Shown in pieces: positions 2,085 to 63,299 of a stretch of DNA of 64,000 bases. Made by a program: the position numbers and the translations under genes. The stretch lies in assembly GCF_963921235.1 (NCBI RefSeq), contig NC_086097.1, positions 70,248,001 to 70,312,000 of the forward strand. The letters are read 5' to 3'. The first letter of the stretch is position 1. Each line of letters begins with the position of its first letter. The notes under the pieces were generated by a model that was not told the DNA's origin, searched no databases, and worked only from the letters and a program-made list of their open reading frames with translations. Origin of the DNA: Mobula hypostoma (Eukaryota).

Positions 2085-2859
2085 CTGTAAAATAAAAGAA
2101 AAATAACCACTTAAGAGCTATTACTAAATTTCAAAGAATTACAAGTGCATATATTTCTACAGTACTGTCGCATTTTGCAATGATTAATTTAAAACAAACA
2201 ATAAGAAAAGTTCCTGAAACTTCTTGTAGTTTAATACAAAGAACATGTTACCACAGGTATTCTGGGGTTTGCGGACTTTCTTGTGCCCAATACTTGCAGG
2301 AGAAAAAAAAATGAGCAGGAAATTAACTGCTTAGTGATTAATTACTTTTGCATTATATTTGGACACAACAACGTGTATTTGGTATATAAGTAAAGCTTGA
2401 ATATAGGACATTTTCAAAACATGAATGAATTTATGGCAAGAAAATTGACTTAGATGTTGTAGAGTTGTGAAAGATAAAATAAAATCACCGAGCTCCTTTG
2501 TTCTCTGAAGCCTTTGATTTCTTAGCATTAATTAAAAGTTTCTCATTGTGTGAGAGCAGCAGTCTAAGAGTTTTTTTTCCCACAACAAAGAACTTGGAGG
2601 GAAACAGGGATTGCATTAATATGCTATTAAAATATTACTTAAACAAAAACACTAGCTCTAAACTGATTGCTTGGATCAAGCCAATTTGTTAAAAATAATA
2701 CTGAATAATAATGTCTTTTTTTGTTCAAATAATATTCCAAATATTACAACATTACTTAAGCATTCTATTAGTAATATATTGTAGTTTATTAAAAGTTTAA
2801 CGTAAACACTTTTGTGACCTCAGAATATCCCAAGGCGCTTTGCATCAATAAAAAAATCC

Positions 2860-3285
2860 AAAAGTTCAGAAGTAAATGTAATTACAAAGTTTACATATGT
2901 CACCATATACAACCCAGAGATTCATTTTCCTGTGTGTATTCCCAGCAATTCTATAGAATAGTAACTATAACAGGATCAAGGAAATATCAACTAGAGTGCA
3001 GAAGACAACAAACTGTGCAAATGTAAATATAAATAAATAGTAGTAAATAATGAGAACATGACATAACAAGATGAAGAGTTCTTAAAGTGAGATAATTGGT
3101 TGTGGGAACATCTCAATGGATGGGCAAGTGAGTGTAGTTATTCCCTTTGACAAGAGCCTGATAGTTGACTGGTAGTAACTTTTCTTGAAACTGCTGGTGC
3201 TGAGTCCTGAGGCAATTCTACCTTCTACCTGCTGGCAGTAGCGAGAAAAGAGCATGGCCTGGGTGGTGGTGATCTCTGATGATAA
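2860..3285 (-). mobile_element. Rex1/Babar-like LINE 3' fragment
   Basis: Minus-strand ...STSSFKKSYYQSTIRLL C-terminal motif and a 3' tail shared with the 51996-52816 element. Confidence 0.7.
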
Positions 3286-4084
3286 ATACTTCAAAAATAA
3301 GTATTTTTGAAATGTGGTCACTATTGTAATGTCAAAGTGCATTTAGGAAACTCAAAAAAATCTAATCAAGTAACATTTCCTGCATTGCGATAAAGACCAA
3401 ATTAACTGATTTAGCAATATTGGTTGAGTGATTAGTGCCCAGGACATCAAGGAGGATTCTCTTGCTTGTTCTCAGAATAATAAATGGAATGTGATTTATT
3501 TTTGTAATTATTTATGCATATGTTATTAGCCAGTGCTGCATAATTATTCATACGTATGTCATGAACAAGTGTAGCGTTTCTAATTTCCCCTGATTTAAGC
3601 AGTCCTCTGTGTCATTCAAAAATAAAGAGTAAATCCATAGCTGTGTACTTGGGATCACTTATAAATCAAAATGTATAAGTGACAAACTTCCTTAGCTGAA
3701 GCGCATTCATAAACAGCTTTCAAAGTTTAATAGTGTCGCAATTATGACAAGTTATACCAAGTTTTTTATTTCAGCGTTATTTGATTACTTGAATTTAAAT
3801 ATTCTCACTGCTGTGGAGGAGATTCAAAACAAAGCCTCCAGATAAACTTGCCAGACCTTGCATGTTCTTTATCAGTAACTTAACCACCGAATACAAACAG
3901 ATAATTTCTGTCATTATTCTATGAGGGTTCATCGTGTCCTAGTTTAACACCTTTTTATAATGCTTCACCAGAGCATCAGCAAGTTCAACCTTCGAATTTT
4001 AAACCTTATGAGAAATGAGGGTGCTACCAGTGAAGCTGCAGTCAAAATGTCTGTACCAACAACATTAAATAATTTCCATGTACC

Positions 4085-4490
4085 AGTACAAAGATTCAAA
4101 GGTTCATTCATTATCAAACTATACAACTCTGAAATTCTTCTTCTCCAGATAGCCACAAAACCAACAAAAAGAATGGCAGCACAATCAACTTCCAAGTCCC
4201 TTCCCCGTGCACAAAAAGAAAAACAGGCACATTGACCCCCAAATCCCCTCCCCTGCATACAAGAAACAAGAAAGATTGGGTGAAAACACTGAATCTATAA
4301 AACTATAAGACACACAAAAAAAGTCTATTGTCTAAGTCCACACCCAAAATGCAGAATACCTAGGTAACATTCTTCAGCCACAGTGGCTGGCCTTTTTATC
4401 TCCAGCAGAGAGCAATCCCACCAGCGATCAAAAGGCAGTCTCCTCTCTCCGGCAGCAGAGCAATTCACCAGCGATCAAAAGGCAGCAAGC
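4085..4490 (-). mobile_element. Non-autonomous retroposon fragment with LINE-like tail and an internal ~40-bp tandem duplication
   Basis: Tail resembles the one at 8352. cagcagagagcaatcccaccagcgatcaaaaggcag is duplicated at about 4403-4486. Confidence 0.5.
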
Positions 4491-4789
4491 AAAGTTTGAT
4501 TTAGGAGACAAGAAATTCTAGGCATCACTCCCCAGTGCTTGTTTTTATCATTACACTTGTTTTTCCAATTTCACCTTTAGTTATTTCTGAACTGAGCAAT
4601 TTTCCTTCTGTGTATTTAATTTTAATGAACTGTTCTACCCGATAGTATCCAACTCTTCATTGATTAATTACCCACGATGTATTTGACCAATTTCCATTAA
4701 ATTTCTGAAAATGAGATGTGATCTCTGGGAACCACTTCTCCCACTTTCAACAGGAATCAAAACTGCTTGGTAGTTTTACTTTTTGAAAC

Positions 4790-5510
4790 AACTGGACCCT
4801 CTCCAGTGTCAGTACATCTTGTTTTAGATACGGTACAGTGCCCAAAACTGCTCACAATTGTCCAAATGTGGTCTGACCAATGCCTTATAAAGACTCAGCG
4901 TTACATCCTTGCTGTTATATTCTAATCCTCTCGAAATAAATGCTAACATTGCATTTGCCTTCCTCATGACTGACTCAACCTGCAAGTTAACCTGTAGAAG
5001 GATTCCTTTCAGACTTTTGAATTTTCTCATTTAGAAAAGTCTATGCTTTTATTCCTTCTATCAAAATGCATGATCATATACTTTCTGACACTGTATTCTA
5101 TCTGCCACTTCTTCGCCCATTCTATTAATCTTTCTAAATCTTTCTGCACCCTCTCTGCGTCCTCAACACCATCTGCCCCTCTACCTATCTTTGTGTCATC
5201 CGCAAAATTGGCCACAAAGGCTTCAATTCCATCTTCCAAGTCATTGATAGATAATGTACAAAGAAGCAATCCCAACACAGACCTCTGTGGAACACAACTG
5301 GTTACCGGCAGCCAACCAGAAAAACCTCTCATTATTCCCAATCTTTGCCTCCTGCCAGTCAGCCAATCTCTACTCATGCTAGTATCTTTCCTGTATGACC
5401 ATGGACTCTAATTTTGTTTAACAGCCTTATCTGTTGCACCTTGTCAAAGGACTTCTGAAAATCCAAGTAAACAACAGCCACTGACTCTCCTTTGTCTATC
5501 CTGCCTGTTT
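4790..5510 (-). mobile_element. CR1 LINE RT fragment
   Basis: VTSCVPQRSVLG, FADDTKIG and LYKALVRPHL motifs; frameshifted. Confidence 0.9.
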
Positions 5511-6089
5511 GTGAAAGTCCACAAATGACTGTAAATCTAAAGAGGAAACTTCAGGTCTAAAGTATTGTGGTGTGCAGAGTTCCCTTTCATATGAGCTATG
5601 AAACATAGAGCTCAGCACAAAGGTACCATTTCCCTTCAGTACTGTTGTTTGTTCATTCTAACTTAATTTTGACTTGCTGCAATAACTTACCATAACCTTA
5701 GAATTCCCAGCCTCTCAGAATTACATCCACGATGGAACCAAATATGAATTTGCTGTAAATTTGAAAACCAGACTTCACACATCATCTGAAATTTGTTGCT
5801 GCAAGAACAAAAGACTATCAGCTGCCAAACCATTCATTATAGATTGAAGCTGAAAATTGTTTTCACAGTACAATGTCTCATTTAAAAGGAGTAACATTGA
5901 AAGAATTTTAGCTGTCCCATGGTGGTAAAGATTCAGAAGAGGACTACCACCCCAGCAGTCAGTAGAACATTCCAGCGATGGGACAGGAATATTTTATCAA
6001 TTGGAAGTTTTGAAATCAGAAATCTAACTTATACTTCTCAAGTAAATGAATATATATCACATGGTAACCAACATTAACTTATATTAATA

Positions 6090-7377
6090 CAAGTTTCCCC
6101 GGCTATCCGAAGGTAGAGCATTCCTATGAAACGGCTCGCAAGCTGGAACGTCGTAAAGTGAATAAGCAATGACCATTTATCAACATGGGAAAAAATTTTA
6201 ATAACGTACAAAATCATGCCAAATAACACACAAAACCTAAAATAACAGTAACATATAGTAAAAGCAGGAATGATATGATAAATGCACAGCCTATATAAAG
6301 TAGAAATACTTTTCTGCAGCACTGTCTAGCACAGCGAAAATCTCACGGCAGCACTCTCGGCAAAAACATTCTCTCCAGTAACCTTTAAGCTATGAAGCTG
6401 TCAAATCATACCAAATAACACATAAAAATACACAGCCTGTATAAAGTAGAAATAATGTATGTACAGTGTAGTTTCACTAACCGGAATCAGGAAGACTCCA
6501 ATAAATTGCAGTTTCGTCACAGTTAAACACTTGCTTATACGAATAAGCACCCAACGCAATCAGCAATCGCCTCTGATCTGGGCCGACACTCACGTTCCGA
6601 GTGGCACCTAATTAATTAGCTTGTTTCTTTCGGCTTTTTTCTTAAAGATGTGCTGGGTGTGTCCTGACTACCGCTGTACCGCTGCATTCTACGTGGCCCG
6701 GAGGTTGGGGACCACTGCTTAAACTATGAAGCTGCCCTCGCCTCAGAAACCGATCAAACCACCCATGACTACCTTTAACTTCCACTTTCGCAACACTTTC
6801 TCCACCATCAACCAGAGCTTTCTGTTTCAGCTTATTAAAAAGACTGATTTCTCCTTGAGTATAAGAAAACTTAACGGAACACCACGCTTTGTACACCCAT
6901 CAATCCACTCAAGCAATAGACTTTCCATTTTATCCATTATTGGATACCAACTAAGAGAGACCACTTTGCTACGAGCAGAATCAACAGTAACATCGGCAGC
7001 TTTCAAAATTCTTTCTTTGCGTATAAATAGCGCGAATGGTGGACGCAGGCAAGTTCAACGCGCGGACAATGTCCTTACTTCCTTCACCACGATCGAAACG
7101 CTTAATTATGTATGTTCTTATGAGCTCTTTTAGGCTTTTCCAATACCTTAGAACTCATCTTGCTAACGGATGCGCAAAATAAATTGAGATAAAGCAGGTG
7201 TTTAAGCAATGCCGGCTAGAATGCAGTTCCGTGGGAGGAGCTTGGCTGTTCGGGCGCACGCTGCCTTTTCTCGTAACAGTGAAAACACCTTCTGTTAGTG
7301 AAAACAGGTAACTAACGTAGGTCTTTCGTAACAGCGAGGTGTCGTAAAGCAAACGTTCGGAAAACAGGGGCCACCTG
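6090..7377 (-). mobile_element. Tigger/pogo-type DNA transposon, internally deleted
   Basis: TA|caagtttccccggctatccgaa ... ttcggaaaacaggggccacctg|TA imperfect TIRs. Minus-strand CENP-B-type HTH remnant (LLEWIDG...KGSHGWFDRFLRR). Confidence 0.85.
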
Positions 7378-7502
7378 TATACTCTTCAATTGACCAAAGA
7401 CTGTTTTATTTTTATTGCAGAGATACATTGGAACCAAATAAGAATTTGCTATAAATTTGAAAACCACAGTTCACACATCATCTGAAACTTGCTACTACAA
7501 GT

Positions 7503-7715
7503 CCTTCAGGCCCACCAAGCCCATACTGTCCTATTATACCCACGTGACCAATTACATACTAAACCGTACATTTTTGGAATGAATGGGGAAAACCGAAGCC
7601 CCACAGAAAACTCACTTGGTCACAGGGAAAACATACAAACTTCTCTCAGACAGCGGCAGAATTGAACCTGGGTTACTGGAGCTGTAATAGCCTTATGCTA
7701 ACCACAATGCCACAC
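7503..7715 (-). mobile_element. tRNA-derived V-SINE (HE1-like)
   Basis: Minus strand: A box TGGCATTGTGG, B box GGTTCAATTC, V-domain-like AGTTTGTATGTTTTCCCTGTG, CR1-like tail. Confidence 0.8.
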
Positions 7716-8351
7716 ACAATGAAAAGAATGGGAAACTTCTTCATTCATGTCTATCTTAACTAAGAGGTTCACGTATTGCCCTCTTCAGTCACAAAATAAG
7801 TGACCAAAGCACACAGAAAATATGTTATCTTCAATACTTAGAAGCCATCATAGAAGACAAAAAGACAATATTAATAATAATGTCTTTAATTCTGTAATAT
7901 GTCCTAAAGTGCTTTTCAAAAATGTTACAATGCGAGATTAGACATATTAGGATAGGTGCCCAGTAGCTTGGCCAGGGCCAGAGATAGATTTTCACAAATG
8001 TTTGACAAGGAGTACGGGTGGAATATGCAGTAACTCCAAAGCTTCAGGCCGGATAGCTGAGGACATGATCACAAACTATAAACCAATTAAAATCTGGTAC
8101 AGTCAACAGGACAAATAAACGGAGCATCAGAGGAATTTCAAAGGGTTGTAAGGCCTGAGATTACAGAAATAAGGAGGTCAAGGTTGTTAAGTATTTCAAA
8201 TACGTGGAAGGAGAATTTACAACCAAGGCATTGTCAGAAACCAGTGAAAGCAAACAAGCATCAGGGTGATAGATAAACAGGATTTAGCAAGACATAGGAC
8301 ACATGTAGCAAAGCCTTCTATGAAGGCAAGTGTCTAAAGGGTGCCATACAA

Positions 8352-9070
8352 AAAGTTCAAAGTACATTTATTATTGAAGTATGTACACATTATACAACCT
8401 TGAGATTCAGGCAGCCACAAAACAAAGAAACCCAAAAGAACCCATTAAAAAAAGACCATTAAACATCCAATGTGCAGACAACAAAAAACAAACCCTGCAA
8501 ACAATATAGGTAAGCAAGTAGCATTCAGAACAAAAGTGAGTCCGTAGACACAGAGCCTGGAGCAGCTGGAGCAGACCTACATCTCAGTTCAGTGCAGAGC
8601 CGAGTAAACATCACAGAGCCTGGAGCAGAGTCTACATCTCAGTTCAGCGCAGAGCCGAGTACACATCGCAGAGCCCTCAGACACAGAGCCTGGAGCAGCC
8701 GGTGCAGACCTACGTCTCAGTTCAGCGCGGCGCCGAGTAAACATCGCAGAGCCCTCAGACACAGAGCCTGCAGCAGCCGGAGCAGACCTACGTCTCAGTT
8801 CAGCGCAGAGCCGAGTAAACATCGCAGAGCCTGGAGCAGGTCTACATCTCAGTTCAGCACAGAGCCGAGTAAACATCACAGAGCCTGGAGCAGGTCTACA
8901 TCTCAGTTCAGCGCAGAGCCGAGTAAACATCGCAGAGCCCTCAGACACAGAGCCTGAAGCAGCCGGAGTAGACCTACGTCTCAGTTCAGCGCGGAGCCCT
9001 CAGACACAGAGCCTGGAGCAGCCGGAGTAGGCCACGGCCACAGCCACAGCCTCAGCCTCCAGCAGAGAGA
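8352..9070 (-). mobile_element. Non-autonomous retroposon hosting an expanded minisatellite
   Basis: LINE-like 3' tail (plus-strand aagttcaaagtacatttattatt...) followed by a GC-rich body. Confidence 0.55.
8546..9030. repeat. GC-rich minisatellite with mixed 78-bp and 54-bp units
   Basis: Recurring cagagcctggagcag...ctac(a/g)tctcagttcagcgcagagccgagtaaacatc, about 7-8 units. Confidence 0.95.
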
Positions 9071-10905
9071 GTATTAGAACAAATGCATCCAAAGACAGGA
9101 AAAGCATGAAAAAGATTTCAGCAATTGATAACTAGTGATATTACTGAAACAAAAATTAATCATTGTACTAACAGAGCAATAAGCATTTGAGAAATCAGCT
9201 CTGCATCAAACACACCAGGGTTATGAAAAGTTGCTTCAGCAACATTTTTTTGGATGGGCTTAGTGGTCAATAAATTAAACTGAGCAGATTAAATAGTTTA
9301 ATTTATTTATATTCATCTATGGGAAATGTTTGCCCAACAGTTGACATCACAGTATGATAACTCCAAGATGCACAGGATCAGAGAGGGGATGGTGAGACAT
9401 CCAAATGTTACAGCTTACACAGATCATTTTTTTTTATTTATATGCCTGAGGAGAAAAGTACATGTGAAAGAAAAAGCAAACAAAAATGGATACCTCAGAG
9501 TCTTGAGAGATGGTACATGAATGGAAAGAGAAGTCATTGCAATTTATTCTCTGCCTAGTAACTGGAACATTAGAATAGTATAGTGCAGAAGTACTTTCAG
9601 CCATTTTTCAAGAGAGGTTGTTATAATCAGAGTCAGGTTTATTACCACTGACATGCACCATGAAATTTGTTGTTTTGTGGTAGAAGTGCAGAGCAATACA
9701 TAAAATATACTATAAATTATAATAAATATTTTAAAAAGTGCAAAAAGGGCATACAAGGCGAGGTAGTGTTCATGAGTTCACTGTCTCCATGTTTTTGCCC
9801 AATCACTCAATTGCAGTTACAGAATCACAATGTCCCCAGCACAAAACACTCTTCTACCTTTCTGTATCATCAGCAAACTTAGAAACCTTGTATTTCTTTC
9901 CCTCCTCCAGGTTATTAATGTAATAGAAAATGTAAACAGGGATGGGCTCAGAACCCACCTTGTGATACCCCACTGGTTATCAGCCTTAAAACAACCCACT
10001 TATACCAAGTCTTCGTTATATTGTTCAATGGGACATGCAGGTTTCTCTGAACATCCATATCATTCAAACTCATAACATGTGCAGGCTCTCCTTCACATGT
10101 ACCACACACTCCATGACAATCTAATGCTGGGATACTAACCACAATATTCTGATGGGAAAGACTCACAGCTTATGTAATATTTTCTAATCAGGATTTTTTT
10201 GTTTCGAGACAACTGCTCCATTCAGCATAGATCTCAGTGCTGGTTATAGTTAAGCTGAATTATACAGTGAATTCATTGATTTCAGAATTAGAATCGGGTT
10301 TAATATCACTAATGCCATGAAATTTGTTGTTTTGCAGTAGCAGTACAGTGCAATAGATAAATTACAATAATATATAAAAATAAATAAGTACTGCAAAAAG
10401 AATTAAAATTATGTCTGTTCAGAAATCTGATGGCAGAGGGGAGGAAGCTGTTCCTAAAATATTGAGTGTGCATCTTCACACTCCTGTACCTCCTTCCTGA
10501 TGGTAGTAATGAGAAGAGGGCATGTCCTAGATGGTGAAAGTCTTTAAGGATGGATGTTGCCTTCTTAAAGGCTGATTTATACTTCTGCGTAGGCTCTACG
10601 CCGTAGACTACGCAAGTGGCTTACGCTGTTGTGAGCATTTATACTTGCCCGTTGGTGTGTCTGTGTCGCTCTGCAATTCACCGCCAAAACGCTAGTTCGC
10701 GGTGGGGTTTCTATGCTACTGTGTTGAGTTTCTTTGTGTACTTTAAACAATGGTGACAAAACTGAGTGCATCATGTTGGAGTTGGCGCTAATAAATGTTG
10801 AACAAGAGTTACTTTTATTGAAATTGCTGCAACGCAGAAAAGAGAGAAGACGTCGGAGGAGATGGTGTGTACGACCATTGAACGGATTGAGGCAGAAGGA
10901 GGGTG

Positions 10906-12428
10906 GCTTTGTGGAACAATCTACGTTCCGTGCCTATTCTGGTATCTGTTCCCCACTTTTCCTTCGCTACATTGACGACTGCATTGGCACTGCTTCCTGC
11001 ACGCATGCGCAGAGCTCGTTGACTTTATTAACTTTGCCTCCAACTTTCACCTTGCCCTCAAGTTTACCTGGTCCATTTCCGACACCTCCCTCCCCTTTCT
11101 AGATCTTTCTGTCTCTGTCTCTGGAGACAGCTTATCCACTGATGTCTACTATAAGCCTACTGACTCTCACAGCTATCTGTACTATTCCCCTTCTCACCCT
11201 GTCTCTTGCAAAAACGCCATCCCCTTCTCGCAATTCCTCCGTCTCCGCCGCATCTGCTCTCAGGATGAGGCTTTTCATTCTAGGACGAGGGAGATGTCTT
11301 CCTTTTTTAAAGAAAGAGGCTTCCCTTCCTCCACTATCAACTCTGCTCTTAAATGCATCTCCCCCATTTCACATACATCTGCTCTCACTCCATCCTCCCG
11401 CCACCCCACTAGGAATAGGGTTCCCCTGGTCCTCACCTACCACCCCACCAGCCTCCGGGTCCAACATATTATTCTCCATAACTTCCGCCACCTCCAACGG
11501 GATCCCACCACTAAGCACATCTTTCCCTCCCCCACTCTCTCTGCATTCCGCAGGGATCGCTCCCTACGTGACTCCCTTGTCCATTAGTCCCCCCCATACC
11601 TCCCCACTGATCTCCCTCCTGGCACTTATCCTTGTAAGCGGAACAAGTGCTACACATGCCCTTACACTTCCTCCCTTACCACCATTCAGGGCCCCAAACA
11701 GTCCTTCCAGGTGAGGCAACACTTCACCTGTGAGTCGGCTGGGGTGATATACTGCGTCCGGTGCTCCCGATGTGGCCTTTTATATATTGGCGAGACCCGA
11801 CGCAGACTGGGAGACCGCTTTGCTGAACACCTATGCTCTGTCTGCCAGAGAAAGCAGGATCTCCCAGTGGCCACACATTTTAATTCCACATCCCATTCCC
11901 ATTCTGACATGTCTATCCACGGCCTCCTCTACTGTAAAGATGAAGCCACACTCAGGTTGGAGGAACAACACCTTATATTCTGTCTGGGTAGCCTCCAACC
12001 TGATGGCATGAACATCGACTTCTCTAACTTCCGCTAATGCCCCACCTCCCCCTCGTACCCCATCTGTTACTTATTTTTATATACACATTCTTTCTCTCAC
12101 TCTCCTTTTTCTCCCTCTGTCCCTCTGAATATACCCCTTGCCCATCCTCTGGGTGCCCCTCCCCCCCACTCCTTGTCTTTCTTCCCAGACTTCCTGTCCC
12201 ATGATCCTCTCGTATCCCTTTTGCCTATCACCTGTCCAGCTCTTGGCTCCATCCCTCCCCCTCCTGTCTTCTCCTATCATTTTGGATTTCCCCCTCCCCC
12301 TTTCAAATCCCTTACTCACTCTTCCTTCAGTTAGTCCTGACGAAGGGTCTCGGCCTGAAACGTCGACTGCATCTCTTCCTAGAGATGCTGCCTGGCCTGC
12401 TGCATTCACGCAACTTTTATGTGTGTTG
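10906..12428 (+). mobile_element. Penelope-like retroelement, 5'-truncated (RT + GIY-YIG endonuclease + terminal repeat)
   Basis: FLRYIDDCIG RT motif; VIYCVRCSRCGLLYIGETRRRLGDRFAEH GIY-YIG domain; pyrimidine-rich 3' UTR; hammerhead-bearing terminus. Confidence 0.92.
12333..12368 (+). ncRNA. Minimal type I hammerhead ribozyme motif in the PLE terminal repeat
   Basis: agtc-CTGACGA-agggtctcggcct-GAAA-CGTC^gact: intact core, stem I agtc/gact, stem II, palindromic ACGT in place of stem III. Confidence 0.8.
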
Positions 12429-13079
12429 TGTGAATTTTCTGTGCTTGTCTGGCCACTGAGAGGCATGGACGAGGAAATGTATTTCAAATATTTTCAGATG
12501 TTGGCAGGTAGATTTTACGATTTGGTTCATCATTCAGAAGCAACCGGAAATGCACAGGAGGAAATGCGATGCTACTAAGTGGACCAATCACAGTTGTTAC
12601 GGTCTGCATTGCCACAATGCGTAGTTACATTTTTGGGGAGGTGCGCGTCAGGCTACGGCATAGGGTACGTGGGTACGCCGTACCTACGGCGTAGATTTGA
12701 CGCAGAAGTATAAATTGGCCTTAAGGCAGCACTGCTTCAAGATACTGTATCTTTGATGTCGGGAGGCTAGTGTCCATTTTGGATCTGGCTAAGTCTATAA
12801 CCCCCTGCAGCTTTTTCCTATCCTGCACTGGAGCCTCCATACCAGATGATGATGTAACCAGTCAGAATGCTCTCCACAGTATGTTTGTAGAAATTTGTTG
12901 GAGTCTTTCCTGACAAACCAAATGTCCTTAAACTTGTGATGAAGTAAATCCGCTGGCATGCCTTCTTTGTGATTGCATCAATATGCTAGGCCAAAATAGA
13001 TCCTCTGAGATGCTGACCCAGAAATTTGAATTTTGATGACCGGTACATGTTCCAATAGTAAATATTCCTAATTTCGAAA

Positions 13080-13175
13080 GCAATGCAAAATACAAGAGAA
13101 ATTCAGCAATTCACGTAGCATCTATGGAGGGAAAATGAAATGTTCACATTTTTGGCCGAGACCCTTCATCAGGAA
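13080..13175 (-). mobile_element. Degenerate PLE terminal-repeat fragment
   Basis: Minus strand CTGATGAAGGGTCTCGGCCAAAAATGTG followed by the agatgct-type hairpin segment. Confidence 0.7.
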
Positions 13176-14619
13176 ATTCAAAATGAGTTTCTCATTATCT
13201 CTAATGTTTGTGCTTCAAAAACCAGTATCAGCCAACGTAACCTAAATACTAAAAATTCAATACGATCTGAAATAACAAAATACCATTCAGCACACAAAAT
13301 ATTCAAAGTTAAACTTACAAGAGATCTCATTTCCTTCACTTCCTCTCAGCCCTCATCTCATTCCCTTATCATTTCTCTCCCCCACCAAACCCAGTGCCCC
13401 AACGTCCCTCTATCTCCTCACTCTCAGAGTGTTGCAAGTTGAATGCATTGCAATCCTGGCATGAAACTCGCATTACCAGGCAGCAATGACCCCTGTCCTC
13501 CTATTAAATGTTAACACCCATAATTCATTCCACAGGCAGCTAAAGACACTGGGAAAATAATACCAAAGACAGCTGTGCAAAACCGTCCAAGTTCATTCAA
13601 AGGATAGGCAAACTAACAACAGCACTGTCAACATTCCCAGTTCTTCGTTACACTCATGTCCTAACACAGGATTTCAACTTGCAATGTCAATGATTCCTTT
13701 CTTCCCACGGATGTTACTTTTGCTAAGCGGGTTATTTGTTGCTCAGTACTCAGAGTTGGCTATGTTGGACAAGCCATGTTGTTTGCTAGACAGACACTAG
13801 GACCCCATAAACATTACCAGCTGTCATAGGAAAAGATTACAAGAAAGGCAGACGAAGACATTTAAGGATGTGTTCATTTTTTCTTAAGTCCAATGACCTT
13901 GCAATTTCTGGTGGGTAACAGCTCAAAGTGAAGATAGTGCATTCGGGACGGCATCTGGAGCACACAGAAGCCTTGTGTGCGTCTTGGAAAAGGCAAAGCA
14001 GCCACCCAACCGCCCTAAGAGTCATTTTCTGCACCTGAAAAGAAGACTCTGTGGTTTCTATTCTGGCCTTATTACCCACTTAATAACGCGTGAAACCTAT
14101 CGTCCCTATCTTCTGGGACCTTCGAAGTGGATAGTGATCGTTGTTGACACTCCGAACGTTAACATTAGCTGCACTTCTCGACTGGAATTTCAATCGGAGA
14201 TTATTACTAACATAAACGTTACTTGTTATTGCACAAACATAAAACTGGTAAATCGATTACACGTCCCAATAAGAGCCAGTAATGCCGTTGATAAAAATTA
14301 GTGATCAGAACATTGTTTAAAAGGATCCTATATTGGTAAAGGAGATATTACATAATAAAAAGGTACCCAATCCAGTTCTTTGCGGAACGCATTCAGACCT
14401 GTATATGTCACCAAAGTTCAATATTAGCATATTCAACAAGTGAATAATAGACAATCACATAAAGTAAGAACGTCAAACAAGTTTATTTTTTCGCTGGCAC
14501 ACTAACACCGGCATTCCAAATAGCGGTGCCTCTTACTGAAAAATTATTGTTTTCAGAGACAAGACTCCAATAGTAAATGATAAGATGCTATAGCCACTTA
14601 AAAGGCTATTAAGAGAAGC

Positions 14620-14995
14620 TGAGAATTCGGCCGTAAGCCGCCGCGCATCACGTCTGGGAGCTCGCCCACAAGCAGCTGCACATCACGGAGCAGCGCGGCG
14701 ACGCTCTCTCCGGTCTCGGGCCTGGCACCACAGCTACAGTGAAGGTGTCATTCTCCTTCACAGGCAGGATCGGTGCGTTACCAAGTTCGTCAGCAGTCTC
14801 TCTAGCCCGGTCACAGCCCGTCCCTTGGTGGTGTTCAGAAGTTACTCACCTATCTGTTTCTCCCGTACGGACGCCGCCATCTTGCCAGCAGCTCTGCCTG
14901 ACGCAAACTCGGATGACGTGGCAACTGCAGGTCGGGCTCCGCGACCGGCCGTAATGATGCTAAAAGCCGGGCTACACGTCAAACACCAGCGTTTA
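14620..14995 (-). promoter_or_regulatory. CpG island / promoter of SCFD1
   Basis: Local GC and CpG enrichment in an AT-rich background around exon 1. Contains GATGACGTGGCA (14912-14923), TGACGCAA (14899-14906) and YY1-type CAAGATGGCGGC over the ATG. Confidence 0.8.
14850..14880 (-). CDS. SCFD1: SCFD1 coding exon 1 (start codon)
   Basis: caagATGGCGGCGTCCGTACGGGAGAAACAGATAG|gtgagt = MAASVREKQI. Strong Kozak context, inside a CpG island, phase 1 joins exon 2. Confidence 0.92.
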
Positions 14996-15132: not shown

Positions 15133-15510
15133 ACAAGAATCTGCAGATGGTGGAATCGAAAAACAAATGGAGAAATGCATCGGGTCGAACAGCATCCAGA
15201 GCGACTTTTTTTTTGCTTCATATATAGATGCTCCCTATAAGGTTCCTTATAAGGAACCCGTTAAGGTTCCTCTAGCGGTATGTTTGGGCCTTGACCCGAA
15301 ACGTCGACTGTCCATTTCCTTCTACAGATGCTGACTGAGCCGTTGTCTTTCAGTTAGTCCTGACGAAGGATCTCAACCCAAAACGTCGACTGTACCTCTT
15401 CCTCGAGATGCTGCCTGGCCTGCTGCGTTCACCAGCAACTTTGATGTATGTTGCTTGAATTTCCAGCATCTGCAGAATTCCTCGTGTTTGCGAATTCCTC
15501 TAGTAGTTTG
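15133..15510. mobile_element. Cluster of PLE terminal repeats (older inverted pair with a younger copy nested at ~15346-15492)
   Basis: Reverse arm 15133-15200, forward arm 15284-15345, younger copy cagttagtcctgacgaagg...cctcgtgtttgcg. Confidence 0.75.
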
Positions 15511-24030: not shown

Positions 24031-24972
24031 CTAGATCAGGCTGTGGTAAATAGGAATTTAATGAATCAAGGGAGTTTACAGTACAGCAACCATCTTTTGG
24101 TTTCATGCTAATATTTACTATAGTATTTTTCCCCCCAAATGTCAGTTTTATTTAAGTAAAGCTCCAATGATCCAGGGCCCTTTGCATTTTGGTGATGCTG
24201 GATTGGCAGACATTTGAAACTACTGGATACTCCTATCAGCTCATCGACATGCTTGAATTCACTTTTTAAGTAAGCTGTATATGATAGTATGAACTTATCT
24301 GTGGACTAGTGTGTTAAAGAGAGAATGAGGAAAAACCAGGTGAGTGTAAAGGGAGTGCTGAAGTGCATGAAACCCAGTTCGTTTAAAGGGCAGGTGAACA
24401 TGACTCCGATAAATCTATACAGAGTATGGGAATGGAACTCTGGTGAGTTAAGAGGAGTAAAGAAATACCGCCTAGGTGAGCCAGATGCAGAGCAATGGGA
24501 TAGTGGACTATTAGTTTTACTGTACTTGAATTTAAAATTTTCCAGCTCAGATTTTGAATTCATGTCTTGGCATCTTGATCCAGAAACTGAGTGTTGTTCC
24601 AATAACATAACTAAATAAATCTCATGAATAAGGATTCCTTTCTCCCATAAACAATGTAGTTTGGCGGAAGAATTTTTCAAATGGTTAAAACTATTTTTTC
24701 AAAGATGGAAAAGAATAAACAATAACGAATAATCAGACAACTAATTTATCTAATGTGTAATTCCTTTTGGTGATAAGTGGATTCTCTTCAGAATTTCTTT
24801 GTTGTGTTATAAATTGCAATTACTGTTTTCAACCAATACAGATAATCACCTTGTTTGATACCAACATCATTGCTATTTCAGTTCCCTTTATCAAGAAGAT
24901 AGTACATAAGTTTGGCTGCACAAATTTTGCTGATAATTGGGTAGTGTGGCAAAAAGTGTAAAATTTTCATAC

Positions 24973-25187
24973 CTTCTACATCTGTCAAATAATCTCTCCA
25001 GAAGCTGATGGCTTTAGATTCTGCAACTATTCTGTTACTTCCATTCGGTGAAAAGTTGATGGAGAAAAGGTTTCCAATTATTTCAGCAGATAATTTCTGT
25101 GGTTTGTAACACAAAAGTTCAGAGAATTTTTCTGGATAGGTCTGAATACTTTCCAACACACCAAGAACTTTCAATCCTTCACGAAAC
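24973..25187 (-). CDS. G2E3: G2E3 exon (HECT)
   Basis: 215 bp, ttccag|...|gtatga. (R)FREGLKVLGVLESIQTYPEKFSELLCYKPQKLSAE...ISFWRDYLTDVEG. Confidence 0.93.
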
Positions 25188-25905
25188 CTGGAAAGGACCA
25201 AATTAAAGATCAAAGTCAAATCGGTTTTGAGGGACAACACGACCTGGACAAAGAAGAACAGAAATAAGTTAGATGAACAGCATAGCAGAAATAGCTCAAC
25301 ATAATGATGCACATAATAAACGGCCAAGTTGTTAACAATGAGGATAAATGAGGCACTGGTGAATGATTTCTGTAGAATCTAACGTTTCACGCGGAATGCA
25401 TATCATTTAACCCAGCATTAAAATAAATGCATTTACACACTCTTTAAAATAATGCACAGTTTATTAATTTCATACACTGTAATTTAAGATCTTTTATATA
25501 ACACACTAAAGTCAATAAAAGGATATAGGCCTGTAAAAATATCTTGTTTTATATGAAAAATATTTCACTGGCCTGGTAAACTAATTCTTAAACCCAAAAT
25601 AAAGACCACATATTTTATAAGATCTGAAGTGCATAGCTTCATACACTGTACACTATTTTAAACATCTGACAACAGGTAGAAGTTGGAACTGATTCCAAAT
25701 AAAATCAAATTGCAGCACAAGGTTTCATTCACCAATCCAAACTCCTATCAGTCCAGAATCCCATTGCCTTTGCTGACCACTGTTGAATATTATGCCATTT
25801 AATATAGTTTTTAACTAAACGCCAATTTTCTTCAACTCATTTTTTGTTTGTAAAACTTCTACAACTTCTACTGGGTTTGTGCATTTACAACATGCGATAC
25901 TAATC

Positions 25906-29439: not shown

Positions 29440-32400
29440 TAAAGGACTTAAAATTGGAGAGCTCCGAGAGAGGAGGTGGCACACAGGTTCGGGAACGAAG
29501 TTTAAAAGGGGAAAGCTTCGCGGGAACTCGACTATAACCAGCGCACCAATCGTGAGCTGGACAGCTGGAAGGTTCAGACATGAAAGGGAGACACTGCCCA
29601 GCGGATGGGTCATCAACAGAGTGGTCTGAGGCAGAGTGGGTAGGGCTTTGGCGAGGTTAGTGGGTTAGTGGGTTTCATTTTTTTTTCCCTTGCATTTTTT
29701 TTTTTGGAGGAATAGAGGGCATGTCCGTAGGGTTAGTACTTTGCTCTGGGTGTCAGATGTGGGAATCCTGGGAACCTTCCAGACTCTCAGATGGCCAGGT
29801 GCACCGAAATGCAGCTTCTGAGAGACCGTGTTAGGGATGTGGAGCTGCGGCTCGATGACCTACAGCTTATTAGGGAAAGTGAGCAGGAGGTAGATAGGAG
29901 CTACAGGGAGTTTGTCACCCCAAGGCTGCAAGAGTTAGATGACTGTCAGGGAAGGGAAGGGAAGTGCTCAGATAGTAGTGAGCACCCCTCTGGCCATCCC
30001 CCTCAGTAATCGTTATCTTGTTTTGGATGCTGTCGAGGGGGATGACTTGACAGAGGACGACCATGGCGATCGGATCTTAGGCACTGAGCCTGGTTCCGTG
30101 GTGCAGAAGAGAGAGAAGAAGATAAGGAATACGGTAGTCGTAGGGGATTCAATAGTGAGAGGAATAGACAGGAGGTTCTGTCAGCCTCATCGAGATACCG
30201 GCAAGGTGCGTTGCCCCCCCAGGTGCCAGGGTATGGGATGTCTCAGATCGAGTGCAGAGTATTCTGTAATTTGAAGGGAGAGGGTGACCAGTCAGAAGTC
30301 TTGGTACACGTTGGCACCAATGACATAGGTAGAAAAAGGGAGGAGGACCTGAACAGAGAATTCAGGAAGTTAGGTAAGAAGCTGAAAAGCAGGACCTCCA
30401 GAGTAGTAATCTCAGGATTGCTGCCTATGCCACGGGCTAATGAGCGCAAGAATAGCATGAGCAGGCATAGTTATGCATGGCTAAGAGACTGGTGCAAGGG
30501 GCAGGGCTTCGGGTTCCTGGATCATTGGGGCCTTTTCTGGGGGAGGTACGACCTATACTAAAAGGACAGGTTACACCTGAACCTAAAAGGGTCCAAAATC
30601 CCAGCAGGCAGGTTTAATAGAGCTGTTAGCCAGGGTTTAAACTAATTTGGCAGGGTGATGGGAACCGGACTAATAGGGCTAAGGAAGGGGAAAACAGAAG
30701 ATAGCGTACAACAGAGATGATAGAAAGGGCAGGCAGGAGATGAGGCATAATCACAGCCAGTGGGATAAGTTACAGGGCTACCCAACTCCCTGGATAGAGG
30801 CGTGGTGCAGTTAAAACAAAAAGCAACAAATACTGCACTGCAACACACACAAAATGCTGGTGGAACATAGCAGGCCAGGCAGCATCTATAGGAAGAGGTA
30901 CAGTCGCCGTTCGTCAGGACTAACTGAAAGAAGAGATAGTAAGTAACCTCTTCCTATAGATGCTGCCTGGCCTGCTACATTCCACCAGTATTTTGTGTGT
31001 GTTGCTTGAATTTCTAGCATCTGAAGATTTCCTCGTGTTTGCGTTTTTAAATACTGGACTGAAAATGTTATATTTGAATGCACACAGCATAAGAAATAAA
31101 ATGAACAATAATGAAATTCAGCTACAGATTGGCAAGTATGACGTTGTGGCCATCTCTGAAACTTGGCTAAAGGATGGCTGCCATTGGGAGCTGAATGTCC
31201 AAGGATATATGGTGCATCAGAAAGATAGGTTAGTAGACAGAGAGGGTGATGTGGCCTTGTGTACAAGAAATAATATTAAATCATTGGAAAGGGAAGGTGT
31301 AGAGTCTCTATAGGCTGAATTAAGAAATGACAAGGGTAGAAGGACCCTAATGGCAGTTGTACACAGGCCTGCAAACCGCAGCCAGGATGTGGATTATAAA
31401 TTACAGCAGGAGATAGAAAAGGCATGTCAAAAGGGCAAAGTCATGATAATTGTTGGAGATTTTAACATGAAAATGGATTGGGAAAACCAGGCCAAGACTG
31501 GACCTCAAGAGGGAGAATTTATAGAATGTCTAAGGGATGGCTTTTTAGAACAGCTTTCTGTTGAACCCACGAGGGGATCGGCTGCACTGGATTGGGTGTT
31601 GTGCAATGATCTGGAGGTGATAAGAGAGCTTGAGGTTAAGGAACCCTAAGGGAACAGTGATCACAATGTGATCAAGTTCACTTTGAAATTTGAGGAGAAA
31701 CTAAATTCCAATGTGTCAGTATTTCAGTGGAATAAAGGAAATTACAATGACATGAGAGGGGAACTGGCCAAGATTGACTGGAAAGCGACACTAGCAGGAA
31801 GGACAGCAGAACAGCAATGGCAGAAGTTACTGCGAAAAATGAAGGAAGTGCAAGACAGATATATTCCAAATAAGAAGAAATTTTTGAATGGAAGAAGGAC
31901 ACTACCGTGGCTGACAAGTGAAGTCAGAGCCAAAGTAAAAGCAAAAGAGAGGACATAGAAGGAAGCTAAAGCCAGTGGGAAGATAGAAGATTGGGAAGCT
32001 TATAAAAACTTGCAGAAAGAAACTAAGAAGGTCATCAGGAAGGAAAAGATGAATTATCAAAGATACTAAAAGCTTTTTCAAGTATATAAAGGGTAAAAGA
32101 GAGTTGAGGGTAGATATAGGACTAATAGAAAATGACACTGAAGATATTGTAATGAGAGACGCAGAGATGGCAGAGGAACTGAATGCGTATTTTGCATCAG
32201 TCTTCACAGTGTAAGACATCTATAGTATACCTGACATTCAAGAGTGTCAGGGAAGCAAAGTATGTGCAGTGAAAATTACGACTGAGAAGGTGCTCAGGAA
32301 GCTTAATGGTCTGAGGGTGGAGATATCTCCTGCACCTGATGGAATGCACCCTTGGGTTCTAAAGGAAGTAGCTGGAGAGATTGCGGAGGCATTAACAATG

Positions 32401-34300: not shown

Positions 34301-36180
34301 AAACACAAGAGATTCTGCAGATGCTGGAAATCTAGGGCAACACACACAAAATGCTGGAGGAACTTAGCAGGTCAGGCAGCATCTATGGAAATGAATAACA
34401 GTTGATGTTTCGGGTCAAGGGGTTTCATCAGGACCGTAACGGAAAAGTGAAGAAGCCAGAATACAAAGGTGGGGGGAGGGGAAGGTCTACAAGCTGGAAG
34501 GTGATAGGTGAAGCCAGATGGGTGGGAGAGATTAAGCAAGAAGCTGGGAAGAAAACAGAAAAGGTAAAGGGCTGAAAGGAGAGGAAAGTGGACCACAGGA
34601 AAAAGGGAAGGAGGAGGGACACCAGGAGGAGGTGATAGGCAGGTGAGAAGAGAAAGTGTGAGAAGGGCTCCAGCATGGGGGGAATTAGAAAGAGGAAAAG
34701 GGAAGGGGGATACTTGAAGTTGGGGAAATCGATGTTCATGCCATCAGGTTGGAGGCTACCCAGATGGAATATGAGGTGTTGCTCCTCCAACCTGAGAGTG
34801 GCCTCATTGCAGCAGTAGAGGAGGCCATGCAACGACATGACAGAATGCGAAAAAGGATTGGAATTAAAATGGTTAGGCACCTGGAAATCCGGCTTTTTGA
34901 GGATGGAGCAAAGCTGCTCGACAAAACAAATCCCCAATCTATGTCAGGTCTCGCCAATGTAAAGGAGGCCGCATTGGAAGTGCTGGACGTCCCCAACAAA
35001 TTCACAAGTAATGTGCTGCCTCATCTGGAAGGACTGTTTGGGGCACCGAATGGAGGTGAGGGAAGAGGTGAATGGACAGGTTGCAGGGATAAGTGGCAGG
35101 AGAGAGTTAGTGGGGAGGGACAAAAGAATCACAGAGGGAGCAATCCTTGAGGAAAGTAAGGGGGGGGAGAGAATGGAGTAAAGATGTCACTGAAGGCAGA
35201 AATTGCAGAGAATGATGGGCTGGGTCTGGAGGCTCACGGGGTGGTCAGTGAGAACAAAAGTAACTCTATCCCTGTTATGATGGTGGGAAAATGGGGGGAG
35301 GTCAGATGTTCGGGAAGTGGAGGAAATGCCAGTGAGATCAATATCAATGGAGGAAGAAAGGAAACCCCATTGTTTGAAGGAGGAGGACATTCCTGATGTC
35401 CTGAAGTAAAGTCACATCCTAGGACCAGACACAGCAGAGACAAAGGAACTGAGAAAAGGGAAAGGCATTTTTTTTTAAATAACAGGAGACATGGTGGGAA
35501 GCATTATAGTCAAGATAGCTGTGGGAGTGGGTAGGTTTATAATATATCCGCAGACATTCTGTCTCCAGTGATTAAGTCAGAGAGATTGATAAAAGGGATA
35601 GGTGTCAGAAATGGACCAAGTGAACCAAGAGCAAGTTCGAAGTTGGAGGCAAGTTGGTGAAATTGACAAGCTTAGCATGGGTGCATGAAGGAGCACTAAT
35701 GAGGTCGTCAATGTAGAGGAGAAAGATTTGGGGAGCATTACCAGGGAAGTCTTGGAACATACACTGTTCCACATAGCCAACAAAAAGGCAGGCATAGCTG
35801 GGGTCCATGCACGTACCCATGGCTAGACCTTAGTTTGGAGAAAATGAAAGAAGCTGAAGGAGAAAGTGGGAGGCATTAAAAAAGAAATAGTTGAGTTCGA
35901 GGACCAGTTCTGCCAGACTGAGGAGGGTGATGCTGGAGGGAAACTGGTCATGTCTGTTTTCAAGAAAGAAGTGGAGAGCTTTAAGGCCTTCTTGAAGGGG
36001 GATAGAAATGTATGCGGTCTAGAGATCCATGGTGAAAATGAGGCAAACAGGGCCAGGGAAATGAAGGTTGTTGAGGAGATTAAGAGCATGTGTAGGTGGG
36101 AAGGAACTGAACCAAGAGGGATATAATTGAGTCATGGTTTGCAAACAAGTTCAGTGGAGCAGGAGCAGGTGCAGGTAGAA
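34301..36180 (-). mobile_element. Penelope-like retroelement (RT, GIY-YIG, terminal repeat), degenerate
   Basis: MGTCMDPSYACLFVGYVEQ, LLYIDD and CGLLYIGET motifs; terminal repeat 34301-34436 with a damaged hammerhead. Confidence 0.9.
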
Positions 36181-39657: not shown

Positions 39658-40468
39658 CCCAACCAACAATTGTTCCCCTAGCACAACAAAAATACTCAAG
39701 AAATCTAGCAAGTATAATGTCATAGAAACATTATATACAATGTAGATTTACTGAGATTATAGGAGAGTGAATTCCCTTAAGATGTTGTATTGTTAGAGAA
39801 AACGAATGTTTAAATATTAGTTTTGGTTAACCATCATTAAAATCTGAGGCAAAACCTGCCATTTTAGTTTAATATTTGTATCCTTCTATTTGTTATCAGG
39901 AAAAAATTATGAAAAGCAAAATTACATCACAATGCAAAACTAGCACTTAATTTTAGACTTCTCAGATTTTATACATTGTAATTGGTTAACAAACATTCTG
40001 CATCCTAATGCAATGAAATCATTGTTCTTCTGAGGCTTCCTCTTTCTTACATGACAGTACATTTTCATTGACTTTCACAAGTATCCATCTTAGTGGACAA
40101 ACTGAGCATGCAATAATTGTGAAAGAGCATAATGAAGGATATTCAAACTGACATGGATATCAAAAAGGATATGCTCTTTTGTACTTGATACTTAAGAGGT
40201 TGTTATTTGAGATCCATAAAGTTTCAGTTTACCTGTCGAAATTTAATTCTACAATGAATTTAAAGTTCATTTCCATTTAACAGTGAATTGTAGAGCCACT
40301 CGGGTATTTTATTAGGATCTGATTTTGGGCAAAACCTCCAAGCAAAAGTCAACTCAAATTACAACTAATGTTAATTCTTCATCTTTTCTTGTACAACATG
40401 AAAATCAAATGGTAAAACAAAAAAAAATAAAGACCACAGTCATGAATTATATGTGAAAAATGTCTAAC

Positions 40469-40785
40469 CTTGAGAATTGAGAGTTAAGTTCTTTGAGGTA
40501 ATCAGACCATCAAATAGAGTTGAATTCTGAAGATGATGCATGAGCAAGTTAAAGAAATCACGAAGAGGGTTTTCAATGTCAGGCATTTCTTGAGGTTTTC
40601 CAGCCTTATCTGAATATTGAATACAAATTGTGCTGGCAGGATTAAATACTTTTCTTTTCATCTCTCTCAAAGCTCCTTCCCAGATGTTTGTTCTGTCAAC
40701 TTTGATTCTTGAGATGACATTTGATTTGATTTGCGACCTTAATTCCTTCAAAATGCTTGCAAGAGGTCTTGCTGCAAATATTTGG
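40469..40785 (-). CDS. G2E3: G2E3 exon (start of HECT)
   Basis: 317 bp, tttaacag|...|gttaga. QIFAARPLASILKELRSQIK...NIWEGALREMKRKVFNP...LLMHHLQNSTLFDGLITSKNLTLNSQ; phases match both neighbours. Confidence 0.9.
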
Positions 40786-41559
40786 CTGTTAAAAAAATAT
40801 TTGCAAGTTTGAAGTTGGTAAAGTAACTATGTATCATCATGTATTATTTCATGAAATACTCCGCAACTCCTCAGTAAGTCTTTTAACATTTTACAATTTA
40901 AAATATCAAAAGTGAAAGATATCCTAATGACCAATAGTCTTTAGCTCCAAACAGATCACAAGTTTAACCTTTAAGTCAAGAAACAATTAAAACAGAAATT
41001 TAGGACCTTAAACTCACTGATGGAATGAAATGGCTAACAAGGGGATTGAAGTTCTCCTGAAGTAATGAAGCTTTACCCTTCCTTCAACTGGTCCTTGTCT
41101 CTCCAAGGAGATTACATAACTGCAGCAAAGAAAAATCTAGTCCTAATGCTCAGTTAAATTCAAACTCTACCCTAAAACTTCTTTACAAATCAAGTCTCTC
41201 TAGTTAGTGTGATAGTAGCTAAATGTAATATACTTCAGAGAGATTATTTCTATCACTGAAAGCATTACTTTCATCAAAATTTCTTCTGCAAAGGATATTC
41301 TGATTATTACTTACCTTGGGGAGAACTGAGCCATGTTTGCTTACTGCTTTACATTTCACAAAACTAGAATCCATCATTTTGTGCATTCCAAATGTGGGTG
41401 AATTGTCTCAGAAATAAATACCAAAATTTTAAAATATCATTGACGCTGTAAAATATCAGTTGTTGATTATGCTTGGGAAAAATTAATAGTAGGTGGAAGG
41501 ACTTAGACTGGTTAATAACCCAACAGGCAAAGCTTAATTTTTAATGTCTAAGTTTTTGC

Positions 41560-58074: not shown

Positions 58075-59085
58075 CAACTGACATCAAGATTGGGGGCATA
58101 CTGGATGTGAGGAAGGTTATCAAAACTTACAATGGGATCTGGACCAGCTGGAAAAATGGGCTAAAGAACAGCAGATGGAATTAAATGTCCTCAAGTCTGA
58201 GGTGTTTGGGAAGACAAACCAGGGTAGAATTTACACAGTGAGCAGAAGGGCACCATGTAATGCAGCGGAATGGAGGGATCTGAGAATACAGATCCATAAT
58301 TCCTTGAAAATAGTGTCACAGGTAGACAGGGTCATTAAAAAAAAGCTTTTAGCCTTCATAAATCAAAGTACAGATGTTAATATTTAAGTTGTAGATGTCA
58401 GTGAGGCCTAATTTAGAGTATTACGTGCAGTTTTGGTTACCTACCTCCAGGAAAATTACCAAGAAGACTAAAGGAATGCAGAGAAATTTTACATGGATGT
58501 TGCCAGGAGTTGATGACCTGAGCTATAGAGAAATGTTGAATAGGATATGACTTTATTCTCTACAGCCTAGGAGAATGAGGGGAGAATTGATAGAGGTATA
58601 CTAAATTATGAGGGGTATTGATAGGGTGAATGCAAGCAGGCTTTTTCCACTGAAGTTGGAGGAGACTAGAACTAGAGGTAACACATATAAAAATTGCTGG
58701 TGAACGCAGCAGGCCAGGCAACATTTATAGAAGAGGTACAGTCAACGTTTCGGGCCTGCTGCGTTCACCAGCAATTTTTATGTGCGTTGCTTGAAATTCC
58801 AGCATCTGCAGATTTCCTCGTGTTTGCATAGAACTAGAGGTCATGGGTTAAGGATTAAAGGTGAAATGTTTAATGGGAACATGAGGAAAAACTTCACTCA
58901 GAGGGTGTCAGCAGAAGTGGCGGATGTGGGTTCGATTTCAACATTTAAGAGAAATTTGGATAAGTACATGGATGGGAGGGGTATGGAGGGTTATGGTCTA
59001 GGTCCAGGTCAATGGGACTATGGAAATTAATAGATCAGCACTGACTAGATGGGCCACAGGGCTGTGCTGTGGTGTTCTGTGACTC
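58075..59085 (+). mobile_element. CR1 LINE 3' fragment
   Basis: Post-RT motifs, RTRGHGLRIKG...NFTQRV, tail gatgggccacagggc. Confidence 0.85.
58680..58828. mobile_element. Fold-back PLE-derived mini-element with perfect 13-bp TSD, inserted in CR1
   Basis: tagaactagaggt at 58667-58679 and 58829-58841; inverted arms of ~36 bp. Confidence 0.9.
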
Positions 59086-61735: not shown

Positions 61736-62719
61736 CGTGATTGGTTAATTGGCTATGTCACTGTATGACTGTAAGATTTGAACAAATCAATAGATTTCAA
61801 CTCTCAAGTATGATAGAGTATCAAAAGCACACTTTACTTCTCAAATGATAACCTCCCAGAGTAAATGCCTGATATTTTACTGACCCACAAGTTGAATATC
61901 CATTCAGTTGTCTACCCTCAAAACCCAAACTTACTTGAAGCAAGCCCCACCCTATTACTTTGCCATCCTGTTTCATCCCACTGCCAGGCTGACCTGTTAA
62001 ATCTGTTAAGTTGAATAAATATTTATGCCTCTAATATTCATTTACATTTAGAAATAAATTTAAAAAAAATTAAATAACAAGGACATTAAAAAATAATTAA
62101 ATGTAAGTAAATTAAGTACATGATATAAATGATCTTGTAACTGGTTTTCTCTCCATATGTTCCACCCCCCCCCCCCCATTAAGATGAACAAGACACACCT
62201 AGTGCAACACTAGCAGGCAGGTTTTCTGGTCTAAGTGCTATGGAATCTGTGGATATTATCACCAACCGCCAATGGACTCCAGGAGTCCAATGTTGGAACG
62301 CAACTGCCCAAGGATTATAATCAATTATGTGGGTATTCAAGACACTAGTCTTCCACTTAGTAGTCCTAAACTTCTGCAGTTACCTGGGTAAAAGTCTGCA
62401 GCTCAGAGTAGAATTCCTGGATTTTTGATAGACATTCCAAGTAAATATTTCATAATCCAGAGGCATTAACCATTTGAGAAGGAACAGTTAGGCACGGATT
62501 TAAAAAAACAGATCACTTCAACTTCATACTTACAGCAAGCTTCCATATGTAGTGTGTATACACTGAGATTTAATTAGAGACCTCATCAGAAAATAACAGT
62601 TTTACTCAAAACCCTATTTTATTTTGTTTTAAGGAATTCAGTGTTGTGACTTTTTAAAATTAATTTCATCTGGTTAATTTCATCAGATATTTTAAAATGC
62701 AAAATAAACAGGATATTAC

Positions 62720-62836
62720 CCTTCAGGTTCTGTATATTCTCGTCCATCTTTACAGAGGCATCTTCTTGCGTCACATCGGTGATAACGGTGCAGCAATTCC
62801 GCAAATGCATTTTCTTCAAGTTCCCAGGAAGCATCC
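62720..62836 (-). CDS. G2E3: G2E3 exon (third PHD/RING finger, N-terminal half)
   Basis: 117 bp, atgcag|...|gtaata. [39 protein letters not shown]. Upstream exons lie beyond the window end. Confidence 0.94.
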
Positions 62837-63299
62837 CTGCATAGAATGAAATGAAACAGTTGGTAATAGAGGAAGAAGTATTGCTGCATAAAGAGTGGAA
62901 ATGAGGACAGGCTTTCTGCAATGAGCAATACAAGTTCATAAAATATCTAAAATCAACACTTTCTGGATTCAAAACTGCAATACTGTTTTCATCTCCAGGC
63001 ATTCAAATTGGAAAATCAAAAAAAAAACCTAAATTCTCCCAGTGGAATAAAGGGCCGAGTCAAATTATTATTGTAAAGTGAGGGAAATGATGCAACATAA
63101 TTAAAATAATGGGAACTAAAAGAGGAAGGATCACTATAAATTAAAGTCAGTGCTGTGCAATCACGCCTATTCCTCTTAAATTTTCTTGTGTTGTATTTAT
63201 TTATTTCTTTCATCCAAGGGAGTAAAAAATTTTTATGCTGCGTCTTCATCACAATGTACAAGTAATAAATTGGGGAAATGTGGGAGGATATTGCCCAAA

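Follow-up and report, generated by a model that had tools for sequence, protein, structure and literature searches.

The question raised by this locus is whether a Penelope-like element in Mobula hypostoma carries a genuine hammerhead ribozyme in its terminal repeat and, if so, what such a motif may do inside an intron of SCFD1. The motif at 12333-12368 of the window (the whole stretch of 64,000 nucleotides that was analysed) was confirmed as genuine and correctly positioned. Both core boxes, the GUC triplet, the predicted cut 3' of 12364 and the palindromic ACGT were found by direct reading exactly where the original prediction had placed them (Table 1). The boxes CUGANGA and GAAA, plus a UH at the cut site, were recovered by direct reading and by a minimal-hammerhead descriptor alike. 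This descriptor, composed after the motif had been seen, matched once on the two strands of the 64-kb window, and once in 300 shuffled windows (dinucleotide-preserving block shuffles of the window). Folded alone, the motif has a helix I of four Watson-Crick pairs and one wobble and a helix II of four pairs. Positions 15.2-16.2 lie in a palindrome (ACGU, 12360-12363) and A12344 provides an extra base; helix III can form from the palindrome in a dimer only, the monomer being without it. Since the motif lacks helix III, it was expected that Rfam models would yield no hammerhead match, either at the gathering score or at E <= 10 over 11000-14000; the three matches obtained at E <= 10 in this interval were at chance level and belonged to unrelated families. 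The fold energy of the motif is unremarkable (z = -0.01).

Table 1. Features of the locus, in window coordinates.
Feature	Position	Strand	Remarks
Minimal type I hammerhead motif	12333..12368	+	Read from the sequence and found by descriptor; predicted scissile bond 3' of 12364
Stem I arms	5' arm 12333-12336; 3' arm 12365-12368	+	Direct reading
Core box CUGANGA	12337..12343	+	CTGACGA in DNA, N7 = C; direct reading and descriptor
Extra base between positions 9 and 10.1	A12344	+	Predicted to be unpaired in the favoured register
Stem II	12345..12356	+	Pairs G·U, G-C, G-C and U·G, with a loop of 4 nt; G·U in place of G-C at 10.1-11.1
GAAA box, palindrome and GUC triplet	12357..12364	+	GAAA 12357-12360; palindromic ACGU 12360-12363; GUC ends at 12364
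5'-truncated Penelope-like ORF	10905..12037	+	C-terminal RT part (YIDD), CX4CX2C linker, GIY-YIG endonuclease with CCHH
3' UTR / pseudo-LTR	12038..12427	+	Ends at the short-tail end of the family; end approximate
Host element with inverted ends	10561..12729	.	Arms 10561-10606 and 12684-12729; Penelope-like fragment inserted inside
SCFD1 intron 1	2085..14849	-	Transcribed opposite to the hammerhead
Decayed terminus, SCFD1 sense orientation	13085..13180	-	GAAA box broken
Incomplete terminus adjoining the 15350 copy on its upstream side	15287..15349	+	Without first core box
Nearest same-strand sister terminus	15350..15453	+	A replaces G12
Second, diverged Penelope-like fragment	34338..36090	-	ORF about 69% identical at the DNA level; its hammerhead (34431) is decayed, with a broken stem II

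Stems I and II, both claimed originally, are present, but the A-U register implied for stem II is poorly supported by folding, with a pair probability of 0.02 as compared to 0.87-0.97 for the register that pairs G12345-U12348 with G12353-U12356 and leaves A12344 unpaired. The pair typical of position 10.1-11.1, G-C, is absent from this copy and replaced by G·U; a purine-pyrimidine pair is tolerated at this position, and we took G10.1-C11.1 as typical, not as defining, for class membership. In the lowest-energy fold predicted for the monomer, core residues G5-G8 are paired with 12361-12364 (probabilities 0.98-1.0), hiding the core. The open-core fold has a predicted probability of 1e-3 for the motif alone and of about 1e-6 with its natural flanks, and helices I and II do not form in the fold predicted for the wider context. 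For the dimer, the double hammerhead is predicted at -12.9 kcal/mol versus -23.4 kcal/mol for two misfolded monomers. These nearest-neighbour predictions ignore Mg2+, non-canonical core pairs and proteins and may thus underrate the active fold. The description of this copy as intact therefore holds for its core, which is complete, whereas the G·U pair and the predicted misfolding speak against extending it further. The available text of PMC544870 holds nothing on G·U at 10.1-11.1.

Next we considered the element that carries the motif. As predicted, this is a minimal type I hammerhead in a Penelope-like terminal repeat, lying on the same strand approximately 300 nt 3' of the ORF stop codon (12035-12037), an arrangement of a class described in PMC4209133. 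The ORF is interrupted twice, by a frameshift near 11010 and by an in-frame stop codon at 11585-11587. Its last 149 residues match the GIY-YIG domain above the Pfam cut-off, and tblastn with relatives carried the alignment on to 10905, taking in the RT YIDD motif, RT and endonuclease being continuous across one frameshift; an RT match in Pfam was obtained on relative P0007, below the cut-off. A CX2-5CxxC linker and a CCHH motif were both found in the ORF by pattern. Both are features of Neptune and Nematis (Craig et al. 2021, PMC8557442), and among vertebrates only Neptune and Poseidon are found according to Li et al. 2026 (bioRxiv 10.64898/2026.07.22.740005), which is why we favour Neptune over Nematis. 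We infer that the element is a Neptune-type, EN+ Penelope-like element, its putative clade being assigned by motifs and not by a tree.

Fifteen protein relatives were matched, the best with 97% identity in Mobula hypostoma, 90% in Hypanus sabinus and 66% in Rhincodon typus; the full-length ray and whale-shark proteins are 66-90% identical to the ORF. These identities indicate that the family is young. The family sequence pattern had no match in metagenome contigs. Four ray proteins annotated as mucin-2, DIPK1C, CHID1 and NYAP1-like isoforms (P0003, P0004, P0010 and P0015) contain the endonuclease region of the element, and are either annotation artefacts or exonised copies. We also observed, 3' of the motif at 12372-12385, a pyrimidine tract ending in AG that resembles a splice acceptor and recurs in the loose ends of diverged families described below. 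Introns are known from Penelope 5' UTRs, and that of D. virilis has its end in helix I.

The original prediction had placed the motif in SCFD1 intron 1, and it indeed lies between exon 1 (14880-14850) and exon 2 (2084-2014), which join in frame, and 2.5 kb separate it from exon 1. Exons 3 and 4 match SCFD1 (PDB 1y9j, E about 1e-13). The prediction had left the orientation unstated: all SCFD1 exons were found on the minus strand, so the plus-strand motif is antisense and the pre-mRNA contains its reverse complement only, in which the same descriptor detected no hammerhead. The motif at 12333-12368 is thus no part of SCFD1 pre-mRNA. The Penelope-like fragment is itself nested in a host element with inverted ends, which are flanked by TAA; a short interrupted reading frame of this element continues across the 1.5-kb insertion. 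The host element may be Harbinger-like; it had no Pfam match. Elsewhere on the minus strand, the open frames 24878-25378, 40464-40826 and 62619-63002 are presumably G2E3-like exons, G2E3 being a neighbour of SCFD1 in other vertebrates, and gave no Pfam match at E 0.01. A tandem repeat at 8514-9030 has long repetitive open frames on both strands.

To what extent the terminus recurs within the window was assessed with an iterated HMM, seeded from the window copies themselves. About ten related termini had been noted originally; their number is somewhat higher, with 19 matches in the 64-kb window, of which 15 (10 plus, 5 minus) have E <= 2e-4. The copy at 12333-12368 was held to be the only one in the window with a complete core, and the descriptor bore this out, being passed by one of the 15 copies; the closest sister (15350) has A for G12, and others had a box missing, had lost stem II, or consisted of tail pieces only. 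A retrozyme-like tandem is absent, there being one complete motif in the window and broken nearest sisters 3 kb away. At position 11.1 (12356), C is present in 5 of 7 readable window copies and U in the copy at 12333-12368. Stem covariation, scored on six decayed window copies after three rows of an initial nine-row alignment had been dropped as partial or misaligned, was matched by 172 of 500 shuffles. At 15287-15453, two termini of different subfamilies, both with broken cores, stand in direct tandem. They precede the start codon of SCFD1 by approximately 400 nt and lie on the strand that a divergent promoter transcript would have.

A tail with two 3' end classes is characteristic of Penelope-like elements (Craig et al. 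2021, PMC8557442; Frangieh et al. 2024, PMC11167929). In the inverted pairs 30841-31004 and 58680-58789, one short and one long 3' end lie approximately 30 nt apart, and the copy at 12333-12368 ends at the short-tail position. A 7-nt match between long tail and target site had raised homology-primed insertion as a candidate, which we rejected since three other copies end at approximately the same short-tail position.

The family is very abundant in public contig runs, as the original prediction had supposed of this repeat. Part of 11500-12700 is contained in 20 of 24 listed runs, and at least half of its words in 18 of these; the matching runs come from 8 studies. Four runs were compared with 12060-12480 (421 bases), two of contigs (X1 and X9) and two of raw reads (X21 and X22). 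X1 gave 90,942 contig records and X9 gave 3,778, most of them at least 90% alike; contig depth sums do not equal copy numbers, the contigs carry neither strand nor RNA ends, and the RNA origin of X9 is a guess. X21 and X22 contributed 0 and 6 reads, the six lying outside the motif, which is too few to bear on it.

Contig depth is highest over the motif. In X1, loose ends accumulate at 12333 (626 records, with diverse flanks) and at 12368/12369 (202 and 532 records), that is, at both edges of stem I, indicating that diverged families have the hammerhead block in common but not its flanks. These edges are the best evidence for conservation above neighbouring positions. Within the block, the variants listed, probably those with a share above about 10% as judged from the lowest shares given, fall at N7 (16%), loop II (12%) and 11.1 (22% C), and no core position is among them; on this list, 0 of 12 core positions vary compared to 26 of 273 flank positions, a difference that is not significant (P = 0.30). 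U at 11.1 (12356) accounts for approximately 78-80% of contig depth in X1 and X9, and C for about 20-22%. U may be a subfamily allele, its share being possibly inflated as the reference itself carries U. That U11.1 is a private CpG decay of the copy at 12333-12368 is doubtful, given its approximately 78% of depth versus 12-16% for the other listed CpG-type changes, with reference bias again possible. Over 12333-12370, a few X1 contigs run from the motif end back to the motif start with 0-3 bases between (depth 32-65), and these are possibly natural back-to-back hammerhead dimers at rare loci.

We consider it highly probable that the motif represents a minimal hammerhead inherited from a young, very abundant Neptune-type ray element, that it serves a tandem master element, and that the lone antisense copy studied here is a passenger. 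The copy is regarded as a passenger because it lies outside SCFD1 pre-mRNA, lacks an intact partner within the window and has its core hidden in the predicted fold. By analogy with published elements, an active master element would be transcribed as a partial tandem in which two motifs pair via their ACGU palindromes; the protein of the element would probably assist the dimer, and a cut 3' of GUC would process the precursor RNA. For the present copy, reverse transcription would have begun at the short-tail site approximately 60 nt 3' of the motif and halted early, so that a 1.5-kb fragment with a single motif resulted.

Activity of the motif at 12333-12368 in cells, by which an antisense transcript through SCFD1 intron 1 would be cut with the 15350 copy 3 kb downstream or family transcripts in trans as partner, appears very unlikely to us. 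The core is complete, a swapped-dimer partner requires only ACGUC and the 3' arm of stem I, both kept by the 15350 and 15287 copies, and the family is present in X9, a run guessed to be RNA; however, the strandless contigs of X9 bear on no plus-strand transcript, two misfolded monomers are predicted to be favoured over the double hammerhead, and only 1 of 9 assayed Xenopus dimers cleaved (Li, Clavereau and Pollet 2026, bioRxiv 10.64898/2026.07.22.740005). The position in intron 1, 2.5 kb from exon 1, and the status as sole window copy with a full core would also suit domestication as a regulator of SCFD1, as with the conserved intronic hammerheads of amniotes. We assign this next to no probability, as the motif is on the wrong strand for SCFD1 pre-mRNA, the core is broken in the only SCFD1-sense copy found (13085-13180), and the copy at 12333-12368 is a young insertion within another mobile element, so that a full core needs no selection.

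It is likewise quite improbable that the motif has ceased to be a ribozyme in this lineage, even in master elements, and is kept as a signal, structural or for protein binding, close to the start of reverse transcription. The predominance of U11.1 in X1 and X9, although G10.1-C11.1 is called highly conserved in the class (PMC4209133), would be consistent with such a loss, as would the unimpaired insertion in vitro of hammerhead mutants of the Anolis carolinensis Poseidon element PAc (PMC11167929) and the lack of a 5'-end pile at the cut site among the loose ends listed. Diverged families, however, have in common a block with both core boxes, most readable window copies carry C at 11.1, and the share of U may be inflated by the U-carrying reference. 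Tolerance of purine-pyrimidine pairs at 10.1-11.1 argues in the same direction.

Returning to the inherited hammerhead of a tandem master element, the single locus is of little weight, being a relic of a described class and antisense to SCFD1. The family itself, a young vertebrate one with a very high copy number, would by contrast give power for strand-bias and end-mapping tests on the role of Penelope hammerheads, called unclear by Craig et al. 2021. One speculation, for which we see only a small chance, is that in the most amplified recent ray subfamily U11.1 would weaken its pair and the monomer would lock the core in an extended hairpin, so that the ribozyme is tuned off unless the protein of the element opens it. 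If true, the near-identical copies would be an assay: fewer complete intronic motifs on the sense strand than antisense or core-broken ones would be the first sign of host-transcript cutting in vivo.

Minimal hammerheads in the pseudo-LTRs of metazoan Penelope-like elements, including Neptune, Poseidon and Xena of fishes, were described in 2014 (Cervera and De la Peña, PMC4209133). The ray motif resembles this class in its type I layout, a helix I of 4-5 bp, an additional base between 9 and 10.1, a helix III consisting of the palindrome only, and its location in the terminal repeat of mostly dispersed single copies. It differs in its short helix II (4 bp, two wobbles), closed by G·U instead of G-C; the G-C pair is not part of that paper's own descriptor. 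No shark or ray is named in the portions of PMC4209133 consulted, two supplement files among them, and we found no published description of the ray family, which the supplements of the 2026 preprint (bioRxiv 10.64898/2026.07.22.740005) may cover. As reported in PMC4209133, minimal hammerheads have no activity as monomers and low activity as dimers; dimer-cleavage work by Lünse et al. is cited in PMC6765202.

Cleavage by PAc occurred only with protein, and no read ends matched its hammerhead (Frangieh et al. 2024, PMC11167929). Given such precedents, the original idea that this repeat family spreads a self-cleaving RNA through the genome goes too far. Like PAc, the ray element belongs to the vertebrate Penelope-like elements, carries a minimal hammerhead and has, in its tail, two 3' end classes approximately 30 nt apart. 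Unlike PAc, which belongs to the Poseidon clade and was assayed for cleavage, it has the linker zinc finger of Neptune and Nematis, and its cleavage is predicted from sequence. Vertebrate non-LTR retrozymes, found in the sole chondrichthyan genome sampled by Li et al. 2026, likewise have type I hammerheads, which descend from the terminal repeats of Penelope-like elements; they consist of non-coding units in tandem, every unit having its own motif, whereas the single motif of the ray copy is still joined to an ORF.

The canonical type I hammerhead of Rfam models has a looped helix III, which the ray motif lacks, in keeping with the absence of an Rfam match. The intronic hammerheads of amniotes are canonical, few-copy and conserved, while the motif at 12333-12368 is minimal, repetitive, young and antisense. 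With the RECK intron motif, one of these conserved amniote hammerheads (PMC6155905), it shares a hammerhead core within an intron.
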